From positions 148,846 through 212,845 of the forward strand of contig JAFCDQ010000003.1 in the NCBI GenBank assembly GCA_017609645.1: a DNA stretch of 64,000 bases, read 5' to 3'. Every line of letters begins with the position of its first letter. Positions within the stretch are counted from its first letter, which is position 1. This DNA is from Candidatus Woesearchaeota archaeon. Lineage in GTDB: Archaea; Nanobdellota; Nanobdellia; Woesearchaeales; ARS49. The notes under the pieces were generated by a model, which had not been told where the DNA came from, ran no database searches, and saw only the letters and a program-made list of their open reading frames with translations. This document shows positions 42,369 to 59,375 of this stretch, in pieces. The position numbers were made by a program, and so were the translations under genes.

Positions 42369-42379
42369 ATTTTAGAATA

Positions 42380-42393
42380 CCGAATATGTTCGG
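42380..42393 (+). promoter_or_regulatory. Second copy of the CCGAATAT-N-T-CGG motif (CCGAATATGTTCGG), about 85 nt upstream of the LivK-like gene at 42479
   Basis: Inverted-repeat arms CCGAA/TTCGG, preceded by the TATA-like TTTTAGAATA. Confidence 0.4.
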
Positions 42394-42478
42394 ATAAAAT
42401 GTTTTCTACTGCAAACTATCTTCTAAATAACAAAATGAATTGTTACGGGAAAATTTGATGGAAATATAAGGTAAAAAA

Positions 42479-43600
42479 ATGATGAAAAAAATTTTTGCAA
42501 TCATTCTAACATTCCTATTAACCTTAACATTTCTAGCAGGATGTTCACCAGTTAATCAAGAAGAGACTATTAAAGTTGGATTTGTATCTACTCTTTCAGG
42601 TGAAGCAGGTTCTTGGGGTCAACAAGTAAAAAAAGGTTTTGAATTTGCTCTGGAAGAGATTAATACTAACAAGCTTTTAGGAGACAAAAAACTTGAAATT
42701 TTCTATGAAGATGATTTTTGTGATGCGACAAACGGATTAACAGCATTTAATAAATTAATAGATGTTAATGATGTTCAGATAATTGTTGGAACTGTTTGCT
42801 CTTCTGTTGCAATGGCAGTATCAGAGAAGACTCAAAGTAATCATATATTATATCTAGCTTCTGCAGCTACAAATCCTGAAGTAACAGAACAAGGAGATTT
42901 TATATTTAGATTATGGGCTTCAGATGACTATGATGCAAAAGCTATCGCTCAATTTGCTGTTAATGAATTAAGATTAGAAACATTTGCAGTTACTTATGTT
43001 AATGATAATCCTGCAGGCCCCATATTAAAAGATGCTTTTAAAGAAACAATTCTAAAAAAAGGAAAAAAGATTTTGGCAGAAGAATCCTATTCTTCAAAAG
43101 AGACTGATTTTAAAACACATTTAATTAAGATTTTACAAAAAAATCCTGAAGCAGTTTATTTAATGACTAATCCAGAAAGGACTGATTTAATCATAAATCA
43201 AATAAGACAACTAGGTTTTGAGGGCATAATATTTGCTTACGGACCTTCGATCACTTCTGAAGGCGTGGTTGAAAAGATTAAAGATAAAAAAGATATATAT
43301 TATGCTTTGCCGGTTTCAAAACAGGAGACACTATTTTGGAATAAATATAAAGAGAAAAAAGGCGAAGATGCAGATTCTCTCGTGGCTTTAGGTTATGACA
43401 GTATGAAAATTCTTGTTGATGGAATTAAAAAATGTGATGTTGATACTGGGTGTTTAAGAGAATATCTGCTAAAGCTAAAAGATTATGAATCTGCAAGAGG
43501 TAAATTAAACTTTGACTCTGAAGGAGCTTTGACTAATATTGAATTTGAAGTGAAAAAAATAAAATTTAAACCTTACCCAATTCTCCATTCACAACTTTGA
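42479..43600 (+). CDS. LivK-like substrate-binding lipoprotein
   Basis: Lipobox LAGC followed by IKVGFVSTLSGEAGSWG; 373 aa. Confidence 0.8.
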   Translation: MMKKIFAIILTFLLTLTFLAGCSPVNQEETIKVGFVSTLSGEAGSWGQQVKKGFEFALEEINTNKLLGDKKLEIFYEDDFCDATNGLTAFNKLIDVNDVQIIVGTVCSSVAMAVSEKTQSNHILYLASAATNPEVTEQGDFIFRLWASDDYDAKAIAQFAVNELRLETFAVTYVNDNPAGPILKDAFKETILKKGKKILAEESYSSKETDFKTHLIKILQKNPEAVYLMTNPERTDLIINQIRQLGFEGIIFAYGPSITSEGVVEKIKDKKDIYYALPVSKQETLFWNKYKEKKGEDADSLVALGYDSMKILVDGIKKCDVDTGCLREYLLKLKDYESARGKLNFDSEGALTNIEFEVKKIKFKPYPILHSQL

Positions 43601-44681
43601 ATGAATCAAAATCTACCAAGATATCTCCGTTCTCATCAAATGTTATCTCTTGCATTAATCCTTTCCATCCTTTTGTGTTATATAATTCTTTTTTGATGCA
43701 ATCAGTATCTTCTCCGCATTTTTCCATTTTTTCTGCTAATAGAAATAATCCGTCATATAATGTTGCACAAAACACTCCTACATCACATCCAATTGTTTCT
43801 TGTAAATATTTGAAACCTTCTGTTGTTTCATCAAAATGCTGTTTTTGTATAATCATTCCTTCCATATAATCTTTTCCCTCATTTAAAGTATCTCCTAAAC
43901 TAAACATTTCAGCTCCGTAAAGTTTTGCTGAAATATCTTGTTCTTTAACTTGTTTTGCAAAAAGAATTGCTACTGGAATTGTTTGCGGAACTAAATATAT
44001 TGCATCAGGTTCTGATTGTTTTATCTTTAACAATTGCACTCTGAATTCTTTTTCATCAGAATTTACTAGCTCATCTGCAACTATTGTTCCGCCGAATTTA
44101 ACAATTTCTTCTTTGAATTTTTCTCTTAATGCTTGGGCATAGTCAGTATTTTCAGAAAGTACCGCTATTTTTTTGTTTTCTTGTTCAATAACTTTTTGTG
44201 CAGCTACTATTGCTTGATGAACATCTGAACCAACATTTCTAAATATATATTCTCCTGCAGTTGTGATTTCAGGGCTTGTTGATGCTGGCGATAAGAATAT
44301 TATTTTTTTTTCTTCAACAAAAGGCGCAGCTCCTAATGTTTCGCCTGAACAAATTCCTCCAAAAATAGTTTTCACGCCTTTTAAATTAACTAATGTTTGT
44401 GCTGCTGTTAACCCATCTTTTGGATTGCATTTGCCATCTTCAAAAAGCAGATTGAATCTGATATTTTTTTTCTCTTTCTTCAATTTTTCATTTAAGTCTT
44501 CTAATGCTTTCTGTGCTATTTTTTGCCCAATCAAACCATGAAAAGCACCATCTCCTGTTAATGGAAATATTGCGCCTATCTTATAGACTTTAACTTTTTC
44601 TTTTATTGGTTGAGCAATTTGTGTTGTAGTACAAGCTGCCAAGAACAATAAAATCATTATGATTGTGATTATTTTTTTCAT
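43566..44681 (-). CDS. LivK-like substrate-binding lipoprotein (close paralog of 45771..46901)
   Basis: Lipobox LAAC followed by a TTTQ linker and YKIGAIFPLTGDGAFHG. Its C-terminal 50 aa are nearly identical to the paralog. Confidence 0.8.
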   Translation of the reverse strand: MKKIITIIMILLFLAACTTTQIAQPIKEKVKVYKIGAIFPLTGDGAFHGLIGQKIAQKALEDLNEKLKKEKKNIRFNLLFEDGKCNPKDGLTAAQTLVNLKGVKTIFGGICSGETLGAAPFVEEKKIIFLSPASTSPEITTAGEYIFRNVGSDVHQAIVAAQKVIEQENKKIAVLSENTDYAQALREKFKEEIVKFGGTIVADELVNSDEKEFRVQLLKIKQSEPDAIYLVPQTIPVAILFAKQVKEQDISAKLYGAEMFSLGDTLNEGKDYMEGMIIQKQHFDETTEGFKYLQETIGCDVGVFCATLYDGLFLLAEKMEKCGEDTDCIKKELYNTKGWKGLMQEITFDENGDILVDFDSFKVVNGELGKV

Positions 44682-44787
44682 TTTTACCTTCCCTTAAGTT
44701 ATAAAAATTAATAGTATCTACTTGTTAATTAAATATTTTATTGATTTTTTTAACAAAATGGAAATATTTATAAAGAATTAATACTTT

Positions 44788-45762
44788 TTGTTAAGTAATA
44801 TGCATAAAATAGATTTAAAAGATAAAAAAATACTTTATCAATTAGATCTTAATTGCAGGCAGTCTTTTCAAAAAATTGGCAAAAAAGTCAGGTTAAGTAA
44901 AGAATCAGTTTTTTATAGAATAAAAAAACTTGAAGAACAAGGAATTATTGAAAGTTATTCTACATTGCTTGATATTGGAAAGCTAGGTTATACAAGCTTT
45001 AGAATTTTTCTAAAATTTCAAAACACTACTTCTTCAAAAGAAGAAGAAATAATTAATTATCTTAAAAAAGAAAAAATAGTTGGCTGGTTTGTAACAATTG
45101 AAGGTAATTGGAATGTGAATCTTTGGTTAATGTCTAAAAATGTTGAAGACTTTGATTCTTTCTGGATAAAATTCAAGGAAAAATACATTAATTATATTGC
45201 TAAACAGAAGCTTGCTGTGTTTACTAACATCACATATTTTTCTAAATCATATCTAATAAATAAATTCAATAAAGACAAATGCAGGTTTGTATCTCCACCA
45301 AAACAAGGAAAAATTGATAAAATTAATTTAGAAATTTTAAAACTCTTAGCATCAAATGCTAGACTCCCTACAGTAGATATTGCTCAAAAACTTAAAATTT
45401 CAGCCAAAACTGTTGCTCATAGAATTAAAGATTTAGAAAAAAAGAAAATAATTGTCGGTTTTAAACCATTACTTAATCTTAATAAATTAGGATATTCTTA
45501 TTATAAAGCGCATTTTAAACTGCATAATTTAACTAAAGAAAAAGAAAAAGAAGTAAGGTATTTTATTTTTCAACAGCCCAATATTGTTTATGATAATATA
45601 GCTATTGGGGGCTCTGATCTAGAAATTGATATTCAAATAGAAAATAAAGAAAAACTTCGTGAATTAATCAAAGAAATAAAAGACAAATTCTCTTTAATTA
45701 TCCAGGATTCTGAAATACTGCATTATTTGAAAGAGTATAAGTATGTTACTTTTCCTGTTTAA
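44788..45762 (+). CDS. Tandem-duplicated Lrp/AsnC-family transcriptional regulator (324 aa)
   Basis: Two AsnC-type HTH modules (KILYQLDLNCRQSFQKIGKKVRLSKESVFYRIKKLEEQGII and LEILKLLASNARLPTVDIAQKLKISAKTVAHRIKDLEKKKIIVGF). Confidence 0.8.
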   Translation: MLSNMHKIDLKDKKILYQLDLNCRQSFQKIGKKVRLSKESVFYRIKKLEEQGIIESYSTLLDIGKLGYTSFRIFLKFQNTTSSKEEEIINYLKKEKIVGWFVTIEGNWNVNLWLMSKNVEDFDSFWIKFKEKYINYIAKQKLAVFTNITYFSKSYLINKFNKDKCRFVSPPKQGKIDKINLEILKLLASNARLPTVDIAQKLKISAKTVAHRIKDLEKKKIIVGFKPLLNLNKLGYSYYKAHFKLHNLTKEKEKEVRYFIFQQPNIVYDNIAIGGSDLEIDIQIENKEKLRELIKEIKDKFSLIIQDSEILHYLKEYKYVTFPV

Positions 45763-45770
45763 TGCAAAAA

Positions 45771-46901
45771 TTAAATCTTTACCAATTCTCCATCCACAAC
45801 TCTGAATGAATCATATTGAACTAAGATATCTCCATTGTCATCAAAAGTTATCTCTTGCATTAATCCTTTCCATCCTTTTGTATTGTACAATTCTTTCTTG
45901 ATGCAATCTGTATCTTCTCCGCATTTTTCCATTTTTTCTGCCAAAAGAAAAACTCCATCATAAATTGAAGCACAATATATCCCTAATTCGCATCCTGTCT
46001 CTTCTTGGACATACTTGAATTCTTCAGTAGTCTCATCAAAATGAGCTTTTTGAGTTATCATTCCTTCTAAATAATTCTTCCCCTTTTTCAAGGTGTCGCC
46101 AAAAGTAAAAGCTTCATTTCCGAAAAGTTGTGCTGATATTGTTTGTTCAGTTATTTGCTTAGCAAACATTATAGCTACACGAATATTCTGCGCATTTAAG
46201 TACAATGCATCAGGATTGGCTGTTTTTATTTTTATTAATTGAATTCTTATGTCTCTTTCATTAGAATTAACGACTTCATCAGCGACTATCTCTCCTCCTA
46301 GTTTTTTGATTTCTTCTTTAAATTTTTCTCTTAATGCTTGTGCATAATCAGTATTTTCTGAGAGTACTGCTATTTTTTTATTGCCCTCTCCTAAAATTTT
46401 CTTCGCAGCAACAACAGCTTGATATTCATCAGAACCAATATTTCTAAATATATAATCTCCTGCATTAGTAATCTCAGGGCTTGTTGACCCAGGGGATAAC
46501 ATTATTATTTTATTTTCTTCTGCAAATGGCGCAGCTCCTAATGTTTCGCCTGAACAAAATCCTCCAAAAATTACTTTTATATCTTTTAAATTAATTAGTG
46601 TTTGCGCTGCAGTTAATGCATCTTTTGGATTGCACCTACCATCTTCAAAAACTAGCTCAAATTTTATATTTTTATTTTCTACTTTTAATTTTTTATTTAA
46701 ATCTTCTAATGATTTTTGTATTACTTTTTGTGCAGGCATTCCATAAATAGAAGCATCACCTGTTAAAGGCAATATTAAACCTATTTTATATACTTTTGTA
46801 CCAGTTACTATAATTTCTTTTGATTTTGTTGCAACTTGAGTTGTAGTGCAAGCTGTAACTAAGAACAACATGATTAAAATTGTAAATAGGTTTTTTTTCA
46901 T
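45771..46901 (-). CDS. LivK-like substrate-binding lipoprotein (close paralog of 43566..44681)
   Basis: Lipobox VTAC followed by a TTTQ linker; the 3'-end nucleotide sequence is about 85-90% identical to 43566-43760. Confidence 0.8.
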   Translation of the reverse strand: MKKNLFTILIMLFLVTACTTTQVATKSKEIIVTGTKVYKIGLILPLTGDASIYGMPAQKVIQKSLEDLNKKLKVENKNIKFELVFEDGRCNPKDALTAAQTLINLKDIKVIFGGFCSGETLGAAPFAEENKIIMLSPGSTSPEITNAGDYIFRNIGSDEYQAVVAAKKILGEGNKKIAVLSENTDYAQALREKFKEEIKKLGGEIVADEVVNSNERDIRIQLIKIKTANPDALYLNAQNIRVAIMFAKQITEQTISAQLFGNEAFTFGDTLKKGKNYLEGMITQKAHFDETTEEFKYVQEETGCELGIYCASIYDGVFLLAEKMEKCGEDTDCIKKELYNTKGWKGLMQEITFDDNGDILVQYDSFRVVDGELVKI

Positions 46902-46980
46902 TTTTTGCCTACCTCAAGTTCTAATTTTTTATCTACCTTAAATTATTATTAATAAGTCAAAACTAAATATTTAATCTTTT

Positions 46981-46998
46981 TACCAAACATGTTTGGTA
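46981..46998. promoter_or_regulatory. Perfect 18-bp palindrome TACCAAACATGTTTGGTA between the HTH_10 regulator gene and the LivK-like gene at 45771..46901
   Basis: It is self-complementary over all 18 nt. A degenerate copy overlaps the regulator's own start codon at 47653-47669. Confidence 0.45.
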
Positions 46999-47002
46999 TT
47001 TT

Positions 47003-47653
47003 TTATTTAGAATAAGATAATAAGTTTGGAATAAGTTTCTCTTCAGCTACTCTTATATGCTGTTGATAAGTCGCTAAAGAAACTCCTGTAAGCTTAGCTA
47101 GTTTTCTTAAATCTGTTTTTTTAGGAGTTTTATAATATCCTTCTTTTATTGCCAGTTCTATTGCTCTTTTTTGTTTTGCAGTTAAATCCGGCATTAGTTT
47201 TGGAAAAAACACATTGTCAATGTTTATTTTATTAAATTTTAATAATTCAAAATTTTTTATTCTTTTTTTGACTTTGTTAACAAATTTAGAAACTTCTTCT
47301 TTTTCCCAAGAAGCTATTTCCCACGTTTCATAGCCTTTATCATCGATTAATACTGGCTTGACAAAGATTATTTTTGGCGTATAAAACTCAACTGCTTTGA
47401 TTTGAGCTTTTTCTAAAAGGAAAAACATATCTCCTTTTTGTTCTAGTTTTATTACGTTTTTGTCTTTTTTTAAGTCTAAAACAAAATCAGTCATATTTGA
47501 AGGTCTGCCTGCCATATACTGCAAAGAAGATGTAACAGCTCTTCCTTTATCTTTAAAAACAGAAAAAACAACTCCTTGTATGGTTATCTTAAACTTTTCA
47601 CATCTATTCCCTATTATACAATCATGTTTAAACTTAAACTTTGCTATCCACAT
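47003..47653 (-). CDS. Transcriptional regulator with a C-terminal HTH_10 (bacterio-opsin-activator-type) domain; paralog of 41709..42368
   Basis: C-terminus LTAKQKRAIELAIKEGYYKTPKKTDLRKLAKLTGVSLATYQQHIRVAEEKLIP. Confidence 0.7.
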   Translation of the reverse strand: MWIAKFKFKHDCIIGNRCEKFKITIQGVVFSVFKDKGRAVTSSLQYMAGRPSNMTDFVLDLKKDKNVIKLEQKGDMFFLLEKAQIKAVEFYTPKIIFVKPVLIDDKGYETWEIASWEKEEVSKFVNKVKKRIKNFELLKFNKINIDNVFFPKLMPDLTAKQKRAIELAIKEGYYKTPKKTDLRKLAKLTGVSLATYQQHIRVAEEKLIPNLLSYSK

Positions 47654-47669
47654 ACAAACATGTATGGTA
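47653..47669. promoter_or_regulatory. Degenerate copy (TACAAACATGTATGGTA) of the 18-bp palindrome, placed between a TATA-like TTTATAAAA and the regulator's ATG
   Basis: Matches TACCAAACATGTTTGGTA at 15 of 18 positions and overlaps the start codon at 47653. Confidence 0.35.
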
Positions 47670-47757
47670 TTAGGTTTTATAAAAGTTTTGAAAAATTAGA
47701 AGGCCAATAAATTTTCTCTCATTTTACTAATAATTGTTCAAAGTTCCTGTTAAATGT

Positions 47758-48930
47758 TTAATTAAACTCAACTATTTCTCCTTTTTCTGCATCAATTATT
47801 TGTTTCATTGCAAAGTTTATTCCTTCTAGATCTCCGTTTTTATCAAACTCGTATTTTCCTATTACGCCATCATATTCTGGCATAGCATACAAATAATCTC
47901 TGATGCATTCTGTGTCAATTTTTCCGCAGGATTCTATTGCATTCTTGATTATGTAAACAGTGTCATATCTTGCTCCAATTTGATAATCGCTTGGGGGCTT
48001 AGAGTACTTGCTCAAGTATTTGTTCAAGAAACTGGTGGCTTTTGAATTGTTTTTGCTTAGTCCAGGCGTATCTACAAATTTAAAGCCATTTAATGCATTC
48101 CCTGCATTTGTTAATGCATCTCCGCTGCTAAAAGCAAAATTGCCGTAATATGGAATATTTATGAGAAGTTCTTTTGCCTGCTTGACTGCTAAACCTCCTG
48201 AAAGTCCTGTTTGCGGGTTAAAGAAAATAGCTTCTGGCTTTGATGCTTTTATTTTTGTTAATTGAATTCTATAATCTTTTGATTCCATCTCAAATATTTC
48301 ATCTGCTATTATTTCTCCACCTAGTTTTTTAAATCGTTGCAAAAATACTTTTCTTACGCCTTGTGAATAATCTTTATTTTCTGTTAAAACTGCAACTTTT
48401 TTATAGCCGTCATTAAAAATCATTTCAGCGATTGCTTCGCCCCCTTCAACATCTGAAGGTGAATTTCTGAAAATAAAATCTCCTGCATTTGTTATATCTG
48501 AGCTTGAAGAAAATGCTGATAATACAATAACTTTGTTTTGTTCAGCTATTGGTGCTATTGCTAATGTTTCTCCGCTGCATGCACCTCCTAGAATAATCTT
48601 GACATTATCAACATTGATTAACTTATTTGCCGCTGTTGTAGCATCTTTTCCACTGCATTTTCCATCTTCATAGATAACTTCAACTTTCATGCCATTGATT
48701 CCTCCTTTAGAATTGATTTCTTCTAAAGCCAGTTCAATAGCATTTTTCTCTCCTTGGCCATAAGATGCTCCGTCACCTGTAAGAGGAATTATAGCGCCTA
48801 TTTTATATATTTTAATCCCTGTAACAATCACTTCCTTTGCTGGCTGTGCAACTTGAGTTGTCGTGCACGCTGTCAAAAATAATATAAGAAATATTATTAC
48901 ATTTATTTTGTTTATTTTTTTCAGGTTCAT
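47758..48930 (-). CDS. LivK-like substrate-binding lipoprotein
   Basis: The track ORF begins at a TTG at 49002. The ATG at 48930 gives MNLKKINKINVIIFLILFLTAC with lipobox LTAC followed by a TTTQ linker. Confidence 0.8.
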   Translation of the reverse strand: MNLKKINKINVIIFLILFLTACTTTQVAQPAKEVIVTGIKIYKIGAIIPLTGDGASYGQGEKNAIELALEEINSKGGINGMKVEVIYEDGKCSGKDATTAANKLINVDNVKIILGGACSGETLAIAPIAEQNKVIVLSAFSSSSDITNAGDFIFRNSPSDVEGGEAIAEMIFNDGYKKVAVLTENKDYSQGVRKVFLQRFKKLGGEIIADEIFEMESKDYRIQLTKIKASKPEAIFFNPQTGLSGGLAVKQAKELLINIPYYGNFAFSSGDALTNAGNALNGFKFVDTPGLSKNNSKATSFLNKYLSKYSKPPSDYQIGARYDTVYIIKNAIESCGKIDTECIRDYLYAMPEYDGVIGKYEFDKNGDLEGINFAMKQIIDAEKGEIVEFN

Positions 48931-48970
48931 TTTTTTCACCTTTAAAATTAAATTTTTTTCATAATTAAAG

Positions 48971-48988
48971 AATTTTCTATAGAAAATT
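48971..48988. promoter_or_regulatory. Perfect 18-bp AT-rich palindrome AATTTTCTATAGAAAATT in the divergent promoter region between the LivK-like gene and the tandem Lrp gene; overlapped by a second inverted repeat AAATTTTGC-N6-GCAAAATTT (48984-49007)
   Basis: Both are self-complementary. A TATA-like TTTAAATA at 49005-49012 lies 22 nt before the Lrp ATG. Confidence 0.35.
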
Positions 48989-49034
48989 TTGCATAACCGC
49001 AAAATTTAAATATTATTATGTAGTTTCTGCATAT

Positions 49035-50023: not shown

Positions 50024-51226
50024 TTATCTATGCAAAAAGCACCTTTCATGTGTGTCGAACAACACTAATCCCATCTCATCTGCCATGAATATCACATCAG
50101 TATCTGCAGTTGAGCCTCTGGGAAAGATTATTCCTTTGATGCCATATTGTGCAGCTAACTTAACAACATCAGTCGCAGGCATAAAAGCATCTGAAGCCAT
50201 GAATGTTCCTTTTGATTGATATCCTCGTTCAGATAATCGAATAGCATCCATTGCAGCATCTATTCTGCTTCTTTGCCCAGAACCAATGCCATGTGCTTTA
50301 TTTTCTGTTGCAATAACAATTGCATTTGATCTTGTGTGTGCTGCCACATGCCATGCAAACAGCGCTGTGTATATATCATCCTCTGTTGGTTTTTTCTTTG
50401 AAATACACTCAAGATCTTCAGGTTTCCAAATGTTAGTTTGATATCTGTTCTCAACCAACAAACCACCTGCAGTTCGTTTATAGTCTATTCCACTATCTTT
50501 TACTGGCTCTGAAATATCTGGCATCTGCAAAACTCTTAGTGGTTTTCTTTTCTTTAGTGCTTCTAATGCTTCGTCAGTATAGGATGGTGCTATCAACACT
50601 TCTGAATTTTTCTTAGGTTTTGCAATCTGCTCTGCAACTTCTTCAGTTACTTCATAAGATAAAGCAATAACTCCTCCAAAAGAAGATAATTCGTCTGCAA
50701 ACCATGCTCGTAAATAAGTTTGTAATGGGTCTGTTCCTCTTGCAACGCCGCTTGGCATTTCATGTTTTACTATTGTTGCAACTAAAGTATCTACACTCTC
50801 GTTCTCAAATAATTCTTTGTCATTTTGTTTGTTTGAAAGTTCATGAAGTGATTTTGTCAATCTTAAAGCCAAATCAACATCTCCTATGTTGATATAACCT
50901 AAACCTTTTGTTCCTTCTTGCAATACTTCAAATGTTGCTGTGCATGGTCCTGAAGCTCCGTCTTCTCCATAAAATGCAGCAGATCCTCCTGGATTCTGAC
51001 CATATCTAAGAGAGAGTTTTTTACTAAACGTTGTTGAAGATTCCCGAATAAGTTGCATCAATTCACGGTCTTGATCAATGTCTAATCCTTGGTCATTTTC
51101 CAATCCCAATCTTTCTAATTTTAGTTTAATAAATTTATCCATATCTATAATTGCACATTGTTCTGGAAAAGATTCGTCTACTTTTTTCACATATTTTTCT
51201 TTACTTGATTCCTCTACCATTCTCAT
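50024..51226 (-). CDS. purH: AICAR transformylase, domain-only PurH (lacks the N-terminal MGS-like IMP cyclohydrolase domain)
   Basis: LRYGQNPGG (PurH LRYGENPHQ motif) and the C-terminal ...GIKGIIFPRGSTADTDVIFMADEMGLVLFDTHERCFLHR match the AICARFT domain; 400 aa. Confidence 0.8.
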   Translation of the reverse strand: MRMVEESSKEKYVKKVDESFPEQCAIIDMDKFIKLKLERLGLENDQGLDIDQDRELMQLIRESSTTFSKKLSLRYGQNPGGSAAFYGEDGASGPCTATFEVLQEGTKGLGYINIGDVDLALRLTKSLHELSNKQNDKELFENESVDTLVATIVKHEMPSGVARGTDPLQTYLRAWFADELSSFGGVIALSYEVTEEVAEQIAKPKKNSEVLIAPSYTDEALEALKKRKPLRVLQMPDISEPVKDSGIDYKRTAGGLLVENRYQTNIWKPEDLECISKKKPTEDDIYTALFAWHVAAHTRSNAIVIATENKAHGIGSGQRSRIDAAMDAIRLSERGYQSKGTFMASDAFMPATDVVKLAAQYGIKGIIFPRGSTADTDVIFMADEMGLVLFDTHERCFLHR

Positions 51227-51986: not shown

Positions 51987-53633
51987 TTATTCCTCCTTTC
52001 TAAAAGATAATTTTAATTCTTTAAGACGAGCTTTTGCATATGTAACAGGAATTGCTGTTAGTCTGCCTGCATCGCCAATATTATTTTCAGGTTTAATTAT
52101 TCCTAGAATTTCATCTCTCACATCAAAGGTTATTTTATTGTCTGCTAAAAGTTTGCTTGTCAAATAAACATAATCACTTTCTTGTACTTTTCTTCCCATT
52201 GTTTTTTCTTTCAAAGTATCATATGCATCTGATATTCCTTCTCTTTTAAGTATTGTCTGCACAGCCGCTGCTGACATTTCTGGATGTTCATCTACTTCTT
52301 TTTGAATATTGTCATAATTTGGTTCATATTTATTTATCTCTTGAATTAATCTTTTTATTCCAATTATTGTTTTTGCAAAAGGTTCTCCTATGCCTCTTCT
52401 TTGTATTGATCTTCTTAAATCTCCCTGCATCTTATATTTAATCTGTCTTTCAAATCCTTGAAATTCTGCATTTGCTTCTGTCAAATATTCTTCTGCTCCT
52501 TCTGACAGCCAAGGATTTGTTTTCTGCGCCATTACAGAAGATCCTGATTCTCCTTTTGTTGTCTTTTTCTGAAATAATCCTCGACTGCAATAATCCCAAA
52601 AGTCAGCGCAAACTTTTATCAAAACATTATTTGTGTTTACAACATCATCATAGAATTTCTGATGCTGCACTCCAAAAACAGGCTGGTCTGCCATTAACTC
52701 AAGTTTTAATTTTAAAATACCTTCAACAAAATATCTGCCAAACTCATCCCAGTCAGCATAATCAGGATATGCTGCAATTAAGTCATTATTATTTCCAATT
52801 GCTCCTCCTAATTTTCCCGGCATTAATAAATATTTATTTGCAAAATTATCTAGTTCAATACCTAAAATAGAAATAAAATTAGCAAATACTTTATGCAAGG
52901 TTGTATATTCTGCATATTGGCCGTGTGTTTGTCCTGCAAATACAGCAGGATCCCAAGTCTCAACTTTTTTAATTAAAGTTTCTTGCAGTTTTAACAATGC
53001 AGGCATATAATGTTCTTTAAACAGTTCTTTTACTGTTAAACTATAAACATTTCCATCAATATCGTCTGATGTTAATGCAAAATGTATGGCTGATTCAACT
53101 TCATTTCTTATGTCTTTTTCCAAAGAATCTCCTAGTTCATATACCATCCATGTTGTCATCGCAACTACATCATGATTTATTTCTCTGTCAAGCAGTTGTA
53201 TTTTTCTAAAATCATTTTCATCAAAATTCTTATACAAGCTTCTTAACTTTTCTTTTTCTTTGTCAGTAAATTCTCTACTTAAAAGATGTTTTTTCTCACC
53301 TTCATATTCATTACAAATAACATCAGTTAATGCAATCAAATATTCTACTTCAACATATACTCTTTTTCTTGTCCATTCATATTGTGATGTAACAGAATGC
53401 AATTCATCAACATATCTATCATATCTTCCTTCTATTGGAGATATCGCATGCATTCTTTTCTTTAGTTTTTCATTTGTTTCAATAGTGTTAAGTAAATAAG
53501 TAATAACTGATTCATCAACCTCTTCAGAAAGTTCGCGCATCAATAATTGTTTTGTATCTAATATAATATTGTCAAACTCAGAAATAAGATGTTCTAATCC
53601 TTTTCTTTTAAGTATTTCTGTATTTTTTACCAT
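51987..53633 (-). CDS. purB: Adenylosuccinate lyase with an N-terminal extension of about 60 aa
   Basis: ISPIEGRY (PurB SPxDGRY motif) and the fumarate-lyase signature GSSVMAQKTNP. The real start may be the internal Met at 53453. Confidence 0.8.
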   Translation of the reverse strand: MVKNTEILKRKGLEHLISEFDNIILDTKQLLMRELSEEVDESVITYLLNTIETNEKLKKRMHAISPIEGRYDRYVDELHSVTSQYEWTRKRVYVEVEYLIALTDVICNEYEGEKKHLLSREFTDKEKEKLRSLYKNFDENDFRKIQLLDREINHDVVAMTTWMVYELGDSLEKDIRNEVESAIHFALTSDDIDGNVYSLTVKELFKEHYMPALLKLQETLIKKVETWDPAVFAGQTHGQYAEYTTLHKVFANFISILGIELDNFANKYLLMPGKLGGAIGNNNDLIAAYPDYADWDEFGRYFVEGILKLKLELMADQPVFGVQHQKFYDDVVNTNNVLIKVCADFWDYCSRGLFQKKTTKGESGSSVMAQKTNPWLSEGAEEYLTEANAEFQGFERQIKYKMQGDLRRSIQRRGIGEPFAKTIIGIKRLIQEINKYEPNYDNIQKEVDEHPEMSAAAVQTILKREGISDAYDTLKEKTMGRKVQESDYVYLTSKLLADNKITFDVRDEILGIIKPENNIGDAGRLTAIPVTYAKARLKELKLSFRKEE

Positions 53634-53671: not shown

Positions 53672-54988
53672 TTATCTATTAATTGCTTTAGCTGCAATAT
53701 CTGTTCTAAAATACTGTGATTTTTTCCCTGTTTCTTTGTCAACAAATTTGATTTTCTCTACAGCATCATATGCTCCTTTCTGCGCTTCAGCAATATCTTT
53801 TCCATAATGTGTCACTCCTAATACTCTTCCTCCGCTTGTTACTAAATTTCCAGCTTCATCTAATTTTGTTCCTGCATGAAACACAAAAGTATTTGGATCT
53901 GTTACACTTTCTAAGCCAGTAATCAATTTTCCTCTGTCATACTCGTTTGGATATCCTTCTGATGCCATTACTACACAGCATGCAGCTCCGTCTTTATGTT
54001 TAATCTCTACTTCATCTAATTTTCCTGTTGCACATGCCATGCATGCTTCATACCAGTCAAAGTCAGTTAACATTGTTATTGGTGGCATTTCAGGGTCTCC
54101 TCCTCTGACATTAAATTCTAATACTTTTATTCCATCTGCAGTTTTTATTAATCCTGCATAGATTATTCCTTTGTAGGTTATTCCAATACTGTTTAACCCC
54201 TCAACTAATGGAGCTAAGATTGTTTTATAGATCTGCTCTTCCATTCCAAGAATCACTGGCGCTGGTCCATATGCACCCATTCCTCCTGTATTTGGTCCTT
54301 TGTCGCCATCAAATGCTGGCTTGTGATCTTGTGTTGAAACAAGCTGCTTGATTGTTTTGCCGTCACATAATGCTATTACAGATGCTTCTTCTCCTATTAA
54401 TTTTTCTTCTACTACAATCAAATCACCTGCACTTCCAAATTTCTTGTTTACCATGATTAAATCAATTGTTTGGTATCCATGTTCTAAATTGTTTAAAACT
54501 ATTACTCCTTTTCCTGCTGCTAAGCCGTCAGCTTTCACAACTGCTTCTAATCCACTGTCATAAAGATCTTTTAGATAATCTTTTGCTTCTTCTGGATTAT
54601 CAAATGATTCATAAGCTGCTGTAGGTATTCCAAATTCTGTCATTGTTTCTTTAGCAAACTTTTTGCTGCCTTCAAGCAAAGCAGCACTTTTATTTGGTCC
54701 AAAGATATGTTTCATACTTGCGCCCATCTCATAAGTATCTGCAATTCCATCTACTAATGGCTGTTCAGGTCCAACAACTGTTAAAGTAATATTTTTATCA
54801 TGAACAAACTTAATGATCTGTCCAAATTGATCAAGATCTAATTTTACATTTTCTCCTTTTTCCAGTTGCGCAGTTCCAGCATTTCCTGGTCCGCACCAGA
54901 CTTTGTCAACATTAGGGCTTTTATTCATTTCTCGTGCAAAAGAATGTTCTCTAGATCCACTGCCTAAAATTAATACTTTTTCTCCCAT
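53672..54988 (-). CDS. purD: Phosphoribosylamine--glycine ligase
   Basis: N-terminal KVLILGSGSREHSFA, an ATP-grasp core and 438 aa. Confidence 0.95.
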   Translation of the reverse strand: MGEKVLILGSGSREHSFAREMNKSPNVDKVWCGPGNAGTAQLEKGENVKLDLDQFGQIIKFVHDKNITLTVVGPEQPLVDGIADTYEMGASMKHIFGPNKSAALLEGSKKFAKETMTEFGIPTAAYESFDNPEEAKDYLKDLYDSGLEAVVKADGLAAGKGVIVLNNLEHGYQTIDLIMVNKKFGSAGDLIVVEEKLIGEEASVIALCDGKTIKQLVSTQDHKPAFDGDKGPNTGGMGAYGPAPVILGMEEQIYKTILAPLVEGLNSIGITYKGIIYAGLIKTADGIKVLEFNVRGGDPEMPPITMLTDFDWYEACMACATGKLDEVEIKHKDGAACCVVMASEGYPNEYDRGKLITGLESVTDPNTFVFHAGTKLDEAGNLVTSGGRVLGVTHYGKDIAEAQKGAYDAVEKIKFVDKETGKKSQYFRTDIAAKAINR

Positions 54989-55004: not shown

Positions 55005-56708
55005 TTATTTTGGTCTGTAAACTGTTGCATGTTTTGCATTGTCTTCTGCAACTTTTGCTTTCTTGCCTTGCATATATTTCTCTACACCCTCTTTAACTTC
55101 GTCGTGTTTTAATCCAAGTATTTTTGCTGCAGCTAAAGCAGAATTAGTTCCGCCATATGCAACTGTTGGAGCAACTCCGCTTGGTGTTTGTAAAGAACTC
55201 CAAACTTCATTTGAATCTTTGTCAGATTTATTTTCATAATTAATTATCACTGGATTTAATGTCCTTGCTGCAATAGAAGGTCCTTTTCCATTTGACATTC
55301 CTGTTACATCAATGTAAATAATATCTCCTGAATAAGAATCAAACCAGTCTACTAATTCAAATAAACTTTCAGGATCTCTATGTGCTGATGCAACATTTAT
55401 TCCATGAGGTATATTTAATGCTTTTAATGTTTTTGAAATGTTTTTCACAGGAGACTTTTCCTTCTCAATATCACTTCCAGATCCTGCAATTATTGAAACA
55501 AAATATCCTTTTATTAATTTGTCATTTTGGCTATATGTACAATTTAGATTATGGCAGACTATATGTGACTGATCAAAGTAAGAATCTCCAACTTTTAATC
55601 CTTCTACAACATCGTCTAAATCAGCACCTGTCAAAAATTCATGTGCTTGGCAAATTATTTTTGCTGCTTCTAAACGAACAGAGTCAGGCAATACAACTCC
55701 TTTCTTTTTCCATAAACCTGCCTCTTGCAGATATTTTCTAACATATTCTTTGTCAAAAGCTTGAGGCTCTTCTTCTGCTTCAAATCTTTCTTGATAAGTT
55801 TCTAATTCCCAAAATCTTGAAGAATCTGTTGTAAACCATTCATCAGCTAAAACTACACAATCAGCAGGCTCAGTATAATTTATTTTTTGCTCTTTTGTGT
55901 ATTTTCTGACTCCCCATTCAAACTTTGTGTCAACAAATATTTTGCCTTTTTTCGCTAATTCTTCTGCTCCTAATTTATATAATTTTTTTGAACAATCAAT
56001 CACATAATCAAGAACATTTCTATCACTAATTGAAGCACTCAATAGCAAAGATCTCTCTTCTTCACCCTCGACTATAGGCAGAGGTAAAACAATCTTATTA
56101 AATCTCTTTTGCAAAAATTCATATGCCTCTTCAACAGTTATGCCAGGATCTCCGTCTGCTTTTGTTGTTATTGTAACAATTGGCTTAACAAACTTTGCAT
56201 TTTTCTTTATCTCGCCACCTTCAAACATGTCTGGCGTTAGTTCAATACCATATTGTTCATAGAATTTATTGTTTGTTGAAGAATGCCTCTTTCCATAATC
56301 TATAATTTGATTAAAATCTCGCCAAGCAGATCCTGTTATAAATCCCCTAACTATTACTTCTAATCCTAAAGTATGTAATTGCTCAATAAGCATTGAATTT
56401 GTAGTTAATCTTTTTTTTAGATGATGCTGACAAATCTGCTCTTCTTCAATCTTTTTTGCCCAATATTCCTGAACTTCAACAAATAAAGCTCCTTTAAGCG
56501 GAATAGCACCAGTAAGTTCTACATCTCCTGCAGAAATCCTGTCTGTTGTGAATTGTATTCCTTCTATATCATTTATCTCATAATTATCTCTTACTTTGCC
56601 TTTATGAAAGCCTCCCTCAGGCACTCCTAACTCTGGAAAGCATGTTGTTTCAAGAACTCTATTTTCTTCAATCATAATTTTTAATGTTTCATCTACAGAC
56701 ATTTGCAC
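55005..56708 (-). CDS. purCE: Bifunctional SAICAR synthetase (eukaryotic Ade1-like PurC) fused to AIR carboxylase (PurE); PAICS-like domain order
   Basis: N-terminal GKVRDNYEI...TTDRISAGDV matches the SAICAR synthetase fold. The C-terminal IAGSGSD...SAHRDPE...AYGGTNSALAAAKILG matches PurE. Confidence 0.8.
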   Translation of the reverse strand: MQMSVDETLKIMIEENRVLETTCFPELGVPEGGFHKGKVRDNYEINDIEGIQFTTDRISAGDVELTGAIPLKGALFVEVQEYWAKKIEEEQICQHHLKKRLTTNSMLIEQLHTLGLEVIVRGFITGSAWRDFNQIIDYGKRHSSTNNKFYEQYGIELTPDMFEGGEIKKNAKFVKPIVTITTKADGDPGITVEEAYEFLQKRFNKIVLPLPIVEGEEERSLLLSASISDRNVLDYVIDCSKKLYKLGAEELAKKGKIFVDTKFEWGVRKYTKEQKINYTEPADCVVLADEWFTTDSSRFWELETYQERFEAEEEPQAFDKEYVRKYLQEAGLWKKKGVVLPDSVRLEAAKIICQAHEFLTGADLDDVVEGLKVGDSYFDQSHIVCHNLNCTYSQNDKLIKGYFVSIIAGSGSDIEKEKSPVKNISKTLKALNIPHGINVASAHRDPESLFELVDWFDSYSGDIIYIDVTGMSNGKGPSIAARTLNPVIINYENKSDKDSNEVWSSLQTPSGVAPTVAYGGTNSALAAAKILGLKHDEVKEGVEKYMQGKKAKVAEDNAKHATVYRPK

Positions 56709-56788
56709 TCACCTCATATCGTTATAAAAACACTATAACCCTTTTTTATATACCTTTTTCGCCACAACAAAATATACTTTCTAGGCTC

Positions 56789-56828
56789 TAAAGCGTCATA
56801 AAGCTTCGTAAAGCTATCTAAAGCTTTG
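56789..56828. repeat. Four tandem 10-bp units TAAAGC-N4 (TAAAGCGTCA TAAAGCTTCG TAAAGCTATC TAAAGCTTTG), with further degenerate TAAAG copies out to 56860
   Basis: TAAAG recurs at 56789, 56799, 56809 and 56819 (exactly 10-nt phasing), then at 56833, about 56844 and 56856. The repeats lie in the 275-nt divergent intergenic region upstream of the GHKL ATPase genes. Confidence 0.5.
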
Positions 56829-56910
56829 TTTCTAAAGTTTCTAAAAGTTTGTTTATAAAGTAAAAAATCTATGTATATTACAGCACCCAAGCTGAAATCC
56901 CTTCCCCACC

Positions 56911-56983: not shown

Positions 56984-57862
56984 ATGATGCACAAAAGATT
57001 AGAGGAGTTAGCAATAGATACAATCAGCGGTATTAATTATCGAGATAGATCTCACATTAAAGGTATTTTAGATAAATCTTATAAAGTAAATTCTAACAGT
57101 CCTTGTGTTAGCATACAAGAAAATATTTACGGACCTGATTCTAGATTTATTCTTTATCTTGATGCAAAAGACAGAATTTCATATGAAGGTGCTGTTACAA
57201 AAGCTATTTTGATTCCTATTATGCATGAATTATCTCATAATATTCAAAAACAATACCAAAAAATGCAAAAAGAACAGCAATTATCCCTATTTCTTCCTTT
57301 TATTTCTTTCATAGGCTTGAGAAAAAGCAGAGAAAAATATGAAGAACATGGTGTCAAAAAAGAAAATGAATTTTATATTTTTGATTTTGCAGATACCGGA
57401 TTGGGTATTCCAAATACTAAAATAGCTGCTTTACAAGGAAAAGCATTGCTTGCTGATACACAACTAAGCAATAAACTTCCTGAAGAAATACAAAAAGAAC
57501 TAATTAGAATGACTGTTGAAAGTGACGTTACAGAAGAAACAGGCGGAATGGGATTAACCATGGCTTATAGAACTTGTAAAACATCAAAAGGAATTTTTTA
57601 TATTGCTTATGATTTCAGAGAAAATGGTAATGGAAGAAATTGTGCTTTATTCACATCTCTCAATCCAACACATATTAGAAAAACAAATAGAAAACCTATT
57701 AAAAAAATTGATAATTTTTTAGAAAATAGAACTAAAACACATGTAAGAGTTTTTATTCCTACTGATTATGTGTTAACTATTGAAAAGTATTTGATTGAAA
57801 ATTCTGAAACTTTTCAAATACTAGACTCAAAACAAAAATTAGAATTTTTAAAAGATCAATAA
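56984..57862 (+). CDS. Divergent GHKL / histidine-kinase-like ATPase (HATPase_c-like) protein, soluble, with a possible H-box
   Basis: G1-like FDFADTGLGIP and G2-like GGMGLTMAY. The upstream IPIMHELSHNIQ resembles a HisKA H-box. No TM segment or sensor domain is recognisable. Confidence 0.55.
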   Translation: MMHKRLEELAIDTISGINYRDRSHIKGILDKSYKVNSNSPCVSIQENIYGPDSRFILYLDAKDRISYEGAVTKAILIPIMHELSHNIQKQYQKMQKEQQLSLFLPFISFIGLRKSREKYEEHGVKKENEFYIFDFADTGLGIPNTKIAALQGKALLADTQLSNKLPEEIQKELIRMTVESDVTEETGGMGLTMAYRTCKTSKGIFYIAYDFRENGNGRNCALFTSLNPTHIRKTNRKPIKKIDNFLENRTKTHVRVFIPTDYVLTIEKYLIENSETFQILDSKQKLEFLKDQ

Positions 57863-57872: not shown

Positions 57873-59375
57873 ATGGTAGATTATATCGAATACGATGCAA
57901 ACGCTGCAAGAGAATTTATTGCATTAATTAAAAAAAGAATTGATAGGTTAACCCCTGCTAAAACTAAAGAATTCTTAAAAGAACTAAATGAAATTGATGA
58001 GATTCATATAAAAGAAGCTGCTAAAGATATTCTTTTCTTTTCAAAACTAGAACGTATTGATCCAGCAGTCTCATTTATTATTGAACAAAAATATCTTTTA
58101 AATGATAAAACATTAAGACCTACATCAGAAGATATTCAAACAGAATATAATACTAACCTTGATGATGAAGCTTCTGCTCTAAACTTTGAAGATATTCCTG
58201 CATTAGAAAGAGCAGGTTTAGAACAAATTGTTGATCCTTTAAAAAATAAAAAAGGTTTAGGTCACATAAGTTATGTTTTTGATAATCTGCGCGAATTAAC
58301 TCCTAAAAGTGTTGCTAATTTTATTATTGAACAAACAATTGCAAGAATAGTTAGAAAACCAAATCGTAAACTTAAAATAGTTGAGAAACACCCAGTTGGT
58401 CTGCCTAAGAAATACAAAGAAGCATGTAAAAAGTTGAGCGGTCAATCAGGCCAAAAAATTACAAAAAATATCACCATCAATATTGGAAAAGAAAAAAATC
58501 AACTCAAACCAACAGACGAAGCAAAGTTGATTTACAGTCTTAATGCTAATGATAAATTCCATAGTATCTACTTGCCTTTTTTCTTTGGAATGTATGGTGT
58601 TAAAGAAATTACTGAAAACTCAGTCAAACAATATGATAAACTAAAAAAGAAAGGCGAGTGTTCAAAAGATAATCCTTTCTTGATGTTGGTTGGCGCAAAG
58701 AAGATATCTGATCAAAGATACAGTACTAGTCAGCGTTTAAAAGCTATTAGATTAGAAGCTTTGACTGATAAAGTTCAAACAGAGGATACAAAAAAAGAAT
58801 CAGCTACTGAAAAAAAAGAAAAAGCAAGTGTTTTCTTGTTTGAATTTGCAGATACTGGAGAAGGGTTTACCAGAGATCAATTACAGAATTTATATAATAG
58901 AATTTATCAAGCAATGATTGTAGATGCAACTGACGAAACAAAATCATTCAAAAAAACTTTAACAAAAGGGAGTGCTAAAGAGAAACACGGAGAAATAGGA
59001 CTTGCTGGTTCTGCTAAAATCTTTGCACAGACTTTCGGAGGAACTTTTGAAATAAATTCTAATTATCACTCTATTGACGGAGTATTATACAAAGATTCAA
59101 TTATTTGTAATAGTGACAAATATGAATTTAAACCACATCAAAAAGCAGTTCAAAGAGATTATGATATTCAGAATGTAATGCAAAAAAGAGCTAAAACTTA
59201 CATTAATATTCAATTAACAGAACATAGTCTGCGTGATCTTGATAAAATAATTCTCGAAAAGCAAAAATATGCTGCTGCAGAAAGACCTCTTGTTTATGAT
59301 GAAAACGATATGACTGAAACATCTGTACTGGAAACTGTTGATTTTGATGAATTTGTATTTCCAGAAGAAATGTAA
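57873..59375 (+). CDS. Second divergent GHKL / HATPase_c-like ATPase protein (500 aa)
   Basis: FEFADTGEGFTRDQL (G1-like) and GEIGLAGSAKIF...GGTFEI (G2/G3-like). It lies 10 nt downstream of the previous gene, with a long N-terminal region of unknown function. Confidence 0.5.
   Translation: MVDYIEYDANAAREFIALIKKRIDRLTPAKTKEFLKELNEIDEIHIKEAAKDILFFSKLERIDPAVSFIIEQKYLLNDKTLRPTSEDIQTEYNTNLDDEASALNFEDIPALERAGLEQIVDPLKNKKGLGHISYVFDNLRELTPKSVANFIIEQTIARIVRKPNRKLKIVEKHPVGLPKKYKEACKKLSGQSGQKITKNITINIGKEKNQLKPTDEAKLIYSLNANDKFHSIYLPFFFGMYGVKEITENSVKQYDKLKKKGECSKDNPFLMLVGAKKISDQRYSTSQRLKAIRLEALTDKVQTEDTKKESATEKKEKASVFLFEFADTGEGFTRDQLQNLYNRIYQAMIVDATDETKSFKKTLTKGSAKEKHGEIGLAGSAKIFAQTFGGTFEINSNYHSIDGVLYKDSIICNSDKYEFKPHQKAVQRDYDIQNVMQKRAKTYINIQLTEHSLRDLDKIILEKQKYAAAERPLVYDENDMTETSVLETVDFDEFVFPEEM

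Follow-up and report, generated by a model that had tools for sequence, protein, structure and literature searches.

A long-form PurC joined to a class II-type PurE in an archaeal purine operon, a fusion apparently convergent with animal PAICS

We have analyzed a purine synthesis locus contained in 64 kb of archaeal DNA (the window, meaning here the whole stretch at its full length). One of its genes, purCE, codes for a single polypeptide that is probably a bifunctional purine enzyme, made of a long-form PurC (SAICAR synthetase) followed by a class II-type PurE, in a fusion convergent with animal PAICS.

The purCE gene and its operon

In the list of open reading frames of the window, 55005..56708 is covered by a single ORF, which lies on the minus strand, starts with a GTG, ends with the stop at 55005-55007 and codes for 567 aa. 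The computed chance of a 567-codon open frame at the composition of this DNA is about 3e-17. An ATG at 56702, two codons 3' of the GTG, would give a product of 565 aa, and a database protein identical to the fusion (P0001) is also 565 aa long. The ATG is the probable start, since a Shine-Dalgarno-like GAGGTGA (56709..56715, minus strand), read directly from the sequence, is located 6 nt upstream of it. The BRE/TATA-like cgaaaaaggTATATAAAAAA (56742..56762, minus strand), at about 40-60 nt upstream of the same ATG, is a candidate archaeal promoter of the pur operon. The upstream motif GCTTTAGA was rejected as a window-wide regulon signal, its 8 matches not being significantly more than the 4.1 expected; its only notable feature was a local array with a 10-bp periodicity.

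The first-pass annotation described one 567-aa protein with PurC and PurE, and indeed the same frame carries both Pfam domains. The peptides quoted there are found at aa 37-41 (GKVRD), 55-62 (TDRISAGD) and 441-444 (SAHR). Uninterrupted orthologues with the same architecture were found at 72%, 37% and 36% identity over at least 13 independent contigs. Specifically, P0002 (72%) also has purB and purO downstream, P0003 appears in 3 contigs from 3 samples and P0004 in 8 contigs. These three intact proteins on independent contigs rule out a frameshift or stop separating the halves, and also an artefact of the assembly.

The purCE gene heads a tight operon, purCE-purD-purB-purO-purH1, on the minus strand. 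Located 16 nt downstream of purCE, and preceded by its own GAGGTG, is purD (GAR synthetase, 53672..54988). After it come purB (adenylosuccinate lyase, 51987..53633, 548 aa with an N-terminal extension), purO (archaeal-type IMP cyclohydrolase, PF07826, 51223..51984) and purH1 (stand-alone AICAR formyltransferase, 50024..51226), the last two overlapping by 4 nt. The operon contains no second purE or purC. It had been remarked before that no purK was visible in the window, and this was confirmed by a Pfam scan of the ORFs of 150 aa or more (46 out of 47, the one omitted being a shadow ORF inside a larger gene) and of several smaller ones, in which no PurK-like protein appeared in the 64 kb and the sole ATP-grasp match was PurD. 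In the same way, purK was found neither in four related loci (L081, L084, L085 and L086) nor, for the pur-rich loci of P0003 and P0004, in the 10 kb flanking each side. Little can be concluded about the whole genome from its absence in 64 kb.

The window contains the archaeal markers S6e, L21e, Rpo4 and PurO. The named relatives of its ThrRS, at only 60-64% identity, are DPANN (Woesearchaeota, Nanobdellota), which makes the phylum tentative. The DNA is of low GC and also encodes a kinase-TPR protein; these two features initially pointed to an Asgard origin, but no support was found for it. Rfam and tRNA scans detected no marker RNAs in the window.

The PurC half

The long-form PurC domain extends over aa 7-373 (55590..56690, minus strand). 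The Pfam model SAICAR_synt (PF01259) matched aa 34-329 with an E value of 2.2e-41 and 142.6 bits (cut-off 20). The best NCBIfam models were NF009251 and NF010568, which are prokaryote-annotation models, and the score remained below the equivalog cut-off (164 vs. 371 bits). All the nucleotide- and CAIR-binding motifs (GKVRD, TDRISAxD, E-x-IVRG, DTKFE-G and DE-x-T-x-DSSRFW) are present and correspond to invariant columns in an alignment of 22 sequences, with DTKFEWG at aa 260-266 and TTDSSRFW at aa 293-300. The single motif change is a Phe replaced by Gly in TDRISA-G-D. Actually, the 30 PurC columns that show no variation among 22 fusion proteins are all kept here. Besides, there are three lineage-specific insertions (aa 134-150, 204-232 and 268-286). 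In the AlphaFold model this half superposes on yeast Ade1 with a TM of 0.83 and an rmsd of 3.1 A. From sequence and model, the PurC half appears functional.

This half had been called eukaryote-type in the first-pass annotation. Its best solved match is certainly yeast Ade1, with mycobacterial PurC next. The identities were about 40% with unfused metagenome and MAG PurCs, 36% with M. abscessus PurC, 35% with Ade1 and 20-24% with the short PurC halves of PAICS-type fusions, and in the tree the half nests in the long-form clade. Yeast Ade1 and the mycobacterial enzymes are of the long form, as are those of many bacteria and archaea, and this form is thus found in all three domains. Because of this distribution the PurC half is not specifically eukaryotic, and the label is not supported, all the more as prokaryotic NCBIfam models fit best and unfused PurCs are closer than Ade1.

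The PurE half and its class

An interdomain linker of lower model confidence (aa 374-397; 55518..55589, minus strand), with pLDDT under 50 at aa 374-379 and then a predicted helix, connects to the class II-like PurE domain (aa 398-562; 55023..55517, minus strand). The AlphaFold monomer model was confident for both domains (mean pLDDT 86.4, pTM 0.85). Pfam AIRC/PurE (PF00731) matched aa 404-550 with an E value of 2e-23 and 83 bits (cut-off 30), and the NCBIfam purE equivalog cut-off was not reached (93 vs. 149.6 bits). In the model the domain has a long C-terminal helix (aa 536-560); the C-terminal helix of PurE is used for oligomerisation. The universal PurE residues are kept. They are G409, S410 and D413 in the phosphate/ribose-binding loop AGSGSD (aa 408-413; 55470..55487, minus strand; MGSTSD 272-277 in human PAICS, residue list of PMC9376930), S441, A442 and the universal catalytic His443, followed by Arg444, in the 40s-loop SAHR (55377..55388, minus strand), and G470 in the 70s-loop VTGMSNGKGP (aa 468-477; 55278..55307, minus strand). 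At three positions the protein departs from residues with 94-100% conservation in each of the classes: Lys475 is found in place of a Leu invariant in both, Tyr in place of Pro491 and Thr in place of Ala469. Besides, Met471 occupies the place of the phosphate-contacting R331 of human PAICS.

Several comparisons were made to class I and class II enzymes. Class-specific HMMs, made with 98 domains of class II and 38 of class I but none of the window clade, gave 143.9 bits for class II and 106.8 for class I, and six out of six clade members favoured class II, by 24-37 bits. The family profile scored 162-217 bits on class II and at most 108 bits on class I. Among solved structures the best matches were silkworm PAICS (E 1.5e-15) and the class II PurE of Treponema denticola (3.5e-15), class I enzymes coming at 6e-12 or weaker. 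The predicted domain superposes on T. denticola PurE with a TM of 0.87-0.90 and on class I PurEs with 0.77-0.79. The 70s loop, T-G-M-S-N-G-K-G-P, has the S-N-G of the class II pattern, G-R/M/K-S-N-G/A-L, and the class I signature A-A-H-L (G-G-A-A-H-L-P-G) is absent; specifically, Asn473 matches class II (79%) and not the Ala of class I (97%). Such diagnostic positions were derived empirically, and because two loops had also served to assign the class labels, there is circularity in two of the seven discriminating columns. Finally, in a neighbour-joining tree (the method used for all the trees) the window clade grouped with class II, apart from the class I core, in 50 of 50 bootstraps. Our analysis indicates that the PurE half sides with class II, the CO2-using AIR carboxylases of EC 4.1.1.21, as far as sequence and predicted fold can tell. 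The class II assignment contemplated in the first-pass annotation is therefore favoured by HMMs, tree, structural matches and the S-N-G loop, but the very peptide quoted for PurE, SAHRDPE, bears a class I-type Arg.

At the position of Arg444, class II has Lys (K304 in human PAICS) and class I has Arg, and this is the sole active-site position singled out as a class difference in PMC10484210. The Arg suggests a different reading, in which the PurE half would be a class I-type N5-CAIR mutase, or an enzyme of intermediate or dual specificity, with PurK encoded elsewhere or N5-CAIR formed non-enzymatically at high CO2/bicarbonate. The fusion would then couple a mutase, and not a carboxylase, to PurC. 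The near-equal mean identities to class I (30.2%) and class II (30.9%) and the 20 of 50 bootstraps that put the clade outside the class II core point in the same direction. Still, we consider it unlikely. The catalytic His acts as the general base, and AIR is bound through its phosphate at the Lys/Arg position (PMC9376930), so that replacing Lys by Arg is a conservative change. Lys is present here in three of the six clade members, as SAHK or SGHK (P0003, P0004 and P0242), the Arg being found in the window protein, P0002 and P0243. Besides, the combination of Arg and class II-type loop appears in 8 sequences among the window protein and its best 150 PurE matches; 3 of them belong to the window clade, and in the tree other sequences with SAHR and such a loop fall within class II. 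The replacement of A-A-H-L by S-N-G, the 37-bit lead of the class II HMM, the family profile, the structural superposition and the lack of purK near the pur genes of three related loci also argue against a mutase.

The window clade is on a long branch, basal to class II in 20 bootstraps and nested in it in 30 of the 50, so it could have diverged before the class II chemistry was fixed. The clade might even be a third deep PurE lineage between classes I and II, with all its known members fused to PurC and with a variable Lys/Arg position, although we find this quite doubtful. The 70s-loop positive charge would have been relocated in such a lineage, as the sequence has Met for Arg331 and Lys for the otherwise invariant Leu. 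Were the lineage to branch at the base of class II, one could learn from its enzymology how direct AIR carboxylation came out of N5-CAIR mutase activity, or the reverse, and if the third-lineage interpretation were true, the covalent coupling to PurC would have accompanied the carboxylase/mutase switch.

Proposed function

Taking the fusion as a class II-type PurE with a long-form PurC, the PurE half is predicted to add CO2 directly to AIR, giving CAIR without ATP and without PurK, and the PurC half to carry out the ATP-driven ligation of aspartate to CAIR that gives SAICAR. Having these two consecutive steps in one chain would fix their stoichiometry. By analogy with the octameric PAICS, the protein may also assemble as an octamer, and the labile CAIR would probably be passed from site to site. 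The operon led by purCE would supply five further steps of purine synthesis.

Origin and distribution of the fusion

The domain order is that of animal PAICS, PurC and then PurE in one chain, as had been pointed out before. The kinship with PAICS that this seemed to imply did not survive the comparison. The PurC halves are only 20-24% identical, human and silkworm PAICS aligned over the PurE half only in a single-sequence phmmer search, and in the neighbour-joining PurE tree the window clade branched apart from the cluster of Bombyx mori PAICS; there was no grouping with PAICS in either of the two trees. Since the PurC belongs to another subfamily and the PurE is not specifically related to that of PAICS, the fusion appears, by sequence, convergent with the animal enzyme. 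A specific common origin with eukaryotic enzymes, by an ancestor or by horizontal transfer of PAICS and/or Ade1, is very unlikely and can be taken as largely refuted already. It would explain the shared domain order, PAICS as the top full-length Foldseek match and Ade1 as the best solved match of the PurC half, and a eukaryote-to-archaeon transfer has been proposed for the class II purE of Archaeoglobus (Brown et al., PMC3261824). However, besides the search and tree results given above, unfused long PurCs are much closer (about 40%) than the short PAICS type, Ade1 is unfused and its identity (35%) does not exceed that of M. abscessus PurC (36%), and the full-length superposition of the predicted model on PAICS gave an rmsd of 23 A, indicating that the predicted domain arrangement differs. 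Hardly credible is an artefact (missed stop, frameshift or chimeric assembly) or a degenerate, non-catalytic PurE scaffold, as the scores far under both equivalog cut-offs, the unusual substitutions and the three insertions might suggest, given the continuous ORF in orthologues on at least 13 independent contigs, the conserved catalytic His, Ser, Asp and loop glycines, the confident model of both domains and the lack of another purE or purC in the operon.

Of the 150 nearest representatives of PurE clusters (the best 150), 26 were PurC-PurE fusions. Among the matches listed, single-ORF fusions belonged to MAGs labelled Bipolaricaulota, Opitutales, Hymenobacter, Enterobacterales, Calditrichota and Ignavibacteria. 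Several apparent fusions detected by tblastn were discarded, being separate adjacent purC and purE genes or gapped matches. The rarity in prokaryotes that had been assumed was thus overstated, as the fusions are scattered over many bacterial phyla. The window clade itself is rare and deep-branching, with about five clusters (relatives P0002, P0003, P0004, P0242 and P0243), all of them fusions, and branches apart from the main bacterial fusion group in both neighbour-joining trees. The window fusion is one of several independent prokaryotic joinings of purC with a class II-type purE.

As the joining was independent and fusions are scattered across many microbes, this one is a modest curiosity with no link to eukaryotes, and it has no bearing on eukaryote origins. 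What it does illustrate is that the PAICS-like solution arose repeatedly, with different PurC subfamilies and also in the reverse order, in bacteria and archaea. This repeated joining argues for a general selective advantage in handling labile CAIR and not for an animal peculiarity. The archaeal clade, being rare and divergent at the active-site positions that separate the classes, is a reasonable target for studying the determinants of PurE class. There is also a reason for caution in annotation, as the fusion falls under the NCBIfam equivalog cut-offs and its relatives bear names like "hypothetical protein" or "fusion protein PurCD".

Comparison with known systems

In Archaea, Archaeoglobus has a stand-alone PurE of class II-like kind and lacks purK (Brown et al. 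2011, PMC3261824). This sets a precedent for a class II-type PurE without purK in an archaeon, the Archaeoglobus PurE being stand-alone and that of the window protein fused. The same survey (PMC3261824) reported no archaeal PurCE fusion, and it was the only literature found with "purCE" as a whole word. The other prokaryotic PurC-PurE(II) fusions, e.g., MBM4167124.1 (Ignavibacteria) and MHB2149338.1 (Calditrichota), also have a long-form PurC and then a class II-type PurE in one polypeptide, but they are shorter (about 440-505 aa), only 28-33% identical, and have the consensus SAHK / AGRSNGLGG / VIACPP.

The best stand-alone match of the PurE half was T. denticola PurE (PDB 3rg8 and 3rgg; E 3.5e-15, rmsd 2.0-2.7 A, 27-28% identity). 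It is a class II AIR carboxylase from a prokaryote, yet unfused, and its SAHK and GRSNAL correspond to SAHR and GMSNGK in the window protein. In a related Treponemataceae MAG (locus L045) the purC ORF stops before the stretch that matches PurE, so the genes are adjacent and unfused. For the PurC half, yeast Ade1 (1a48, 2cnq) and M. abscessus PurC (3r9r, 6yvq) matched with E values of 1e-23 and 5e-15. Both share all the nucleotide- and CAIR-binding motifs, but they are monofunctional, lack the three insertions and are only 35-36% identical.

Of the solved structures, only animal PAICS (PDB 2h31, 6yb8, 4ja0) could be aligned with the window protein over its full length. It has PurC and PurE in the same order, for the same two consecutive reactions, and its PurE is also class II-type, with S-N-G in the 70s loop and with the catalytic Ser-Ala-His. 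The differences are in the PurC, short in PAICS (about 250 aa) and long with three extra insertions in the window protein, which is about 140 aa longer overall, and in the PurE active site, where Arg444, Met and Lys are found in place of Lys304, Arg331 and Leu335 of PAICS.

Integrity of the fusion gene and its operon

The gene purCE (55005..56708, minus strand) is a single ORF that encodes 567 aa from a GTG start. Both domains share one frame, SAICAR_synt at aa 34-329 (Pfam, E 2.2e-41) and AIRC/PurE at aa 404-550 (E 2e-23), and at the base composition of the window a stop-free run of 567 codons would arise by chance with a probability of about 3e-17. The single protein with the domain order of PAICS described in the first-pass annotation is therefore real, including the peptides quoted there. 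An ATG at 56702, two codons 3' of the GTG, has GAGGTGA 6 nt upstream and a BRE/TATA-like element, cgaaaaaggTATATAAAAAA, about 40-60 nt upstream, and the identical protein in the database (P0001) has a length of 565 aa. Judging from these sequence signals, the ATG is more likely to be the true start than the GTG. An assembly artefact, or a frameshift or stop hidden between the halves, could be rejected. The closest relative (P0002, 72% identity) has the same uninterrupted architecture on an independent contig, where purB and purO follow as well, and two more distant ones were found on three contigs from three samples (P0003, 37% identity) and on eight contigs (P0004, 36% identity).

The fusion is the first gene of a tight minus-strand operon, purCE-purD-purB-purO-purH1. 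After a 16-nt gap containing GAGGTG comes purD (53672-54988), and 38 nt further purB (51987-53633). The archaeal IMP cyclohydrolase gene purO (PF07826, 51223-51984) follows after 2 nt and is overlapped by 4 nt by purH1 (50024-51226), a stand-alone AICAR formyltransferase. In the PurB of the window (548 aa), some 60 extra N-terminal aa precede the Lyase_1 domain; the one adjoining the 72%-identical orthologue has 491 aa. At three loci with P0003 or P0004 (L081, L084 and L085), a conserved gene of 279-288 aa without Pfam match is located between purD and purCE, in surroundings otherwise rich in pur genes (purQ, a purS-purL fusion, purM). It may be an unrecognised component of the purine pathway.

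The lack of purK in the window, pointed out before, was corroborated by Pfam scans of 46 of the 47 ORFs with 150 aa or more (the one skipped is a shadow ORF inside a larger gene) and of several smaller ones, among which PurD was the only ATP-grasp protein. The host is an archaeon, as indicated by the presence in the window of S6e, L21e, Rpo4/F, ZPR1, SepF, PurO, HTH_10 and TrmB regulators and an ADP-forming acyl-CoA synthetase. The GC content is about 31%. The nearest named relatives of its ThrRS belong to Woesearchaeota, Nanobdellota and Nanoarchaeota at 60-64% identity, so that a DPANN-related affiliation is possible. Rfam and tRNA scans of the window gave no marker RNAs.

Other features of the window

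TRF (period 10 and 23) picked up some seven copies of the 10-bp periodic motif (A/G)CTTTAGA(A/T) at 56787-56862, between the divergent genes and immediately upstream of the putative purCE promoter. Such an array may serve to bind a regulator or to bend DNA; over the whole window, the 8-mer showed no enrichment. Divergent from the pur operon are two adjacent plus-strand genes (56984-57862 and 57873-59375) of 292 and 500 aa that look like a paralogous pair. Both carry F(D/E)FADTG(L/E)G, reminiscent of the G1 box of GHKL ATPases, and a weak, sub-threshold Pfam match to HATPase_c was found in the 500-aa gene only. Five very large ORFs (2282, 663, 870, 1085 and 711 aa) follow one another at 2405-20187 (minus strand). 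Pfam recognised essentially nothing in them except a borderline Ig-like Big_13/Glucodextran_B stretch in the 2282-aa one, and they may code for a surface or cell-contact apparatus. LivJ-type solute-binding proteins are expanded at 35039-49002, where a single LivFGHM transporter is surrounded by seven Peripla_BP_6 paralogues. Genes for three double AsnC-type HTH proteins (AhbA/B-like, 316-324 aa) and for two HTH_10 regulators lie in between. Finally, a 768-aa protein (27644-29950, minus strand) combines a eukaryote-like Ser/Thr protein kinase domain with a long TPR array.

The PurC half

The PurC half had been considered eukaryote-type. Its best solved match is yeast Ade1 (E 1.2e-23), followed by the Mycobacterium abscessus PurC (5e-15), and the predicted domain superposes on Ade1 with a TM of 0.83. 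However, in an alignment of 150 sequences the identity was 35% to Ade1, 36% to the mycobacterial PurC and about 40% to unfused long PurCs of metagenomes and MAGs, falling to just 20-24% with the short PurCs found in PAICS-type fusions (P0283, P0303, P0315 and P0323). The top NCBIfam models (NF009251 and NF010568) are long-PurC models, and with the single-sequence query the alignments to human and silkworm PAICS were limited to the PurE half. Hence, eukaryote-type is a misnomer and, by its sequence, this half is a long-form PurC, which occurs in each of the three domains of life. The family motifs GKVRD, TDRISAGD, DTKFEWG and TTDSSRFW are all kept, and insertions at aa 134-150, 204-232 and 268-286 are confined to the window protein and P0002.

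The PurE half is class II-like

The best solved matches of the PurE half were silkworm PAICS (E 1.5e-15) and the unfused Treponema denticola class II PurE (3.5e-15), with class I enzymes starting at 6e-12 and human PAICS at 4e-11. A profile built on 22 prokaryotic PurC-PurE fusions separated sharply class II (162-217 bits) from class I (up to 108 bits). HMMs trained on 98 class II and 38 class I domains, leaving out the window clade (the window protein with P0002, P0003, P0004, P0242 and P0243), scored 143.9 and 106.8 bits respectively on the window domain, and class II was favoured by 24-37 bits in all six clade members. The AlphaFold model, which is confident (mean pLDDT 86.4, pTM 0.85), places the PurE domain closer to T. 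denticola PurE (TM 0.87-0.90, rmsd 2.0-2.7 Å) than to class I PurEs (TM 0.77-0.79).

An exhaustive phmmer search with the PurE half against 1.84 billion cluster representatives gave 508 matches at E <= 1e-3 and just three under 1e-30; therefore, the immediate family is very small. When 167 PurE domains were placed in a neighbour-joining (NJ) tree, the window protein clustered with the other five clade members, all of them PurC fusions, and this clade was monophyletic in 45 of 50 bootstraps. The split joining it to class II and apart from the class I core appeared in all 50, with the clade basal to class II in 20 and nested inside it in 30.

The diagnostic residues agree only in part. The window PurE reads AGSGSD / SAHR / VTGMSNGKGP where human PAICS has MGSTSD / SAHK / VAGRSNGL (PMC9376930). 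Twelve of the 18 listed active-site residues are identical, and both proteins keep the His that is the universal general base as well as the class II Ser-Asn-Gly of the 70s loop (Ala-Ala-His in class I). However, the one distinct active-site difference between the classes is an Arg in class I versus Lys304 in human class II (PMC10484210), and here the window protein has the class I-type residue, Arg444. Since Lys304 binds the AIR phosphate (PMC9376930), the replacement is conservative. Among the window protein and its 150 best PurE matches, 72 sequences combine SAHK with a class II-type loop, 46 have SAHR without it (nearly all with A-A-H-L of class I type or a close variant) and eight have SAHR together with the class II-type loop. 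The clade also deviates where both classes are nearly invariant (Leu475 to Lys, with Leu in 100% elsewhere, Pro491 to Tyr and Ala469 to Thr), and carries Met or Leu in place of the phosphate-contacting Arg331 of human PAICS. The new Lys, four residues beyond, may replace the lost charge. All in all, we consider this PurE class II-like, but as a member of a divergent sub-lineage.

A probable two-step enzyme

The window protein is most likely a PAICS-like two-step enzyme. Of the two candidate PurE substrates, AIR + CO2 and N5-CAIR, the former is the more likely, and the PurE domain would convert AIR and CO2 to CAIR independently of PurK. His443 would serve as the general base, phosphate and ribose would be held by Arg444 together with the AGSGSD loop, and the S-N-G loop would make up the carboxylate/CO2 pocket. 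The PurC domain would then produce SAICAR from CAIR, ATP and Asp. A single chain guarantees 1:1 expression of both activities and, by analogy with the PAICS octamer (PMC9376930), CAIR might be handed over between sites. The C-terminal helix that PurE uses for oligomerisation is present in the model (aa 536-560), and the protein may form an oligomer. The full-length superposition on PAICS gave an rmsd of 23 Å, so the predicted domain arrangement differs.

PurC-PurE fusions in prokaryotes and their relationship to PAICS

Such a fusion had been thought unusual for prokaryotes. The first homologue search already retrieved some 30 fused proteins of 440-505 aa (28-33% identity), for example from Ignavibacteria and Calditrichota. 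A fusion in one ORF was confirmed for MAGs labelled Bipolaricaulota, Hymenobacter, Opitutales and 'Enterobacterales'. The 150 nearest PurE representatives include 26 PurC-PurE fusions, another three in reverse order (PurE-PurC) and 11 PurE-PurE proteins. The architecture is not rare among prokaryotes. MAGs labelled Anaerolineae, Peregrinibacteria and Treponemataceae have a purC ORF that stops short of the stretch matching PurE, and thus both genes are adjacent but separate, a plausible precursor state. Further independent routes to joining purine steps are represented by P0273, P0321, P0361 and P0007, which comprise reverse-order fusions of 439-525 aa and one 745-aa PurC-PurE with extra glutamine-amidotransferase (PurQ-like) domains. 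We found no description of prokaryotic PurCE fusions in the searchable literature. Brown et al. (2011; PMC3261824) refer to fused PurCE solely as 'common in eukaryotes', and describe class II-like PurE without PurK in Archaeoglobi.

Separate NJ phylogenies of the two halves speak against the kinship with PAICS suggested by the first-pass annotation. Both trees keep the window clade apart from the PAICS group and also from the main group of bacterial fusions, suggesting, at the level of NJ support, several independent fusion events. What makes this clade of some interest is that it is a rare, deep-branching archaeal set of PurEs, all of them fused, with an Arg/Lys polymorphism and unusual active-site substitutions. 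The bacterial fusions have a canonical class II consensus (SAHK, AGRSNGLGG, VIACPP), whereas the window protein has SAHR and TGMSNGKGP, and we regard its clade as a further case in which the PAICS architecture arose independently.
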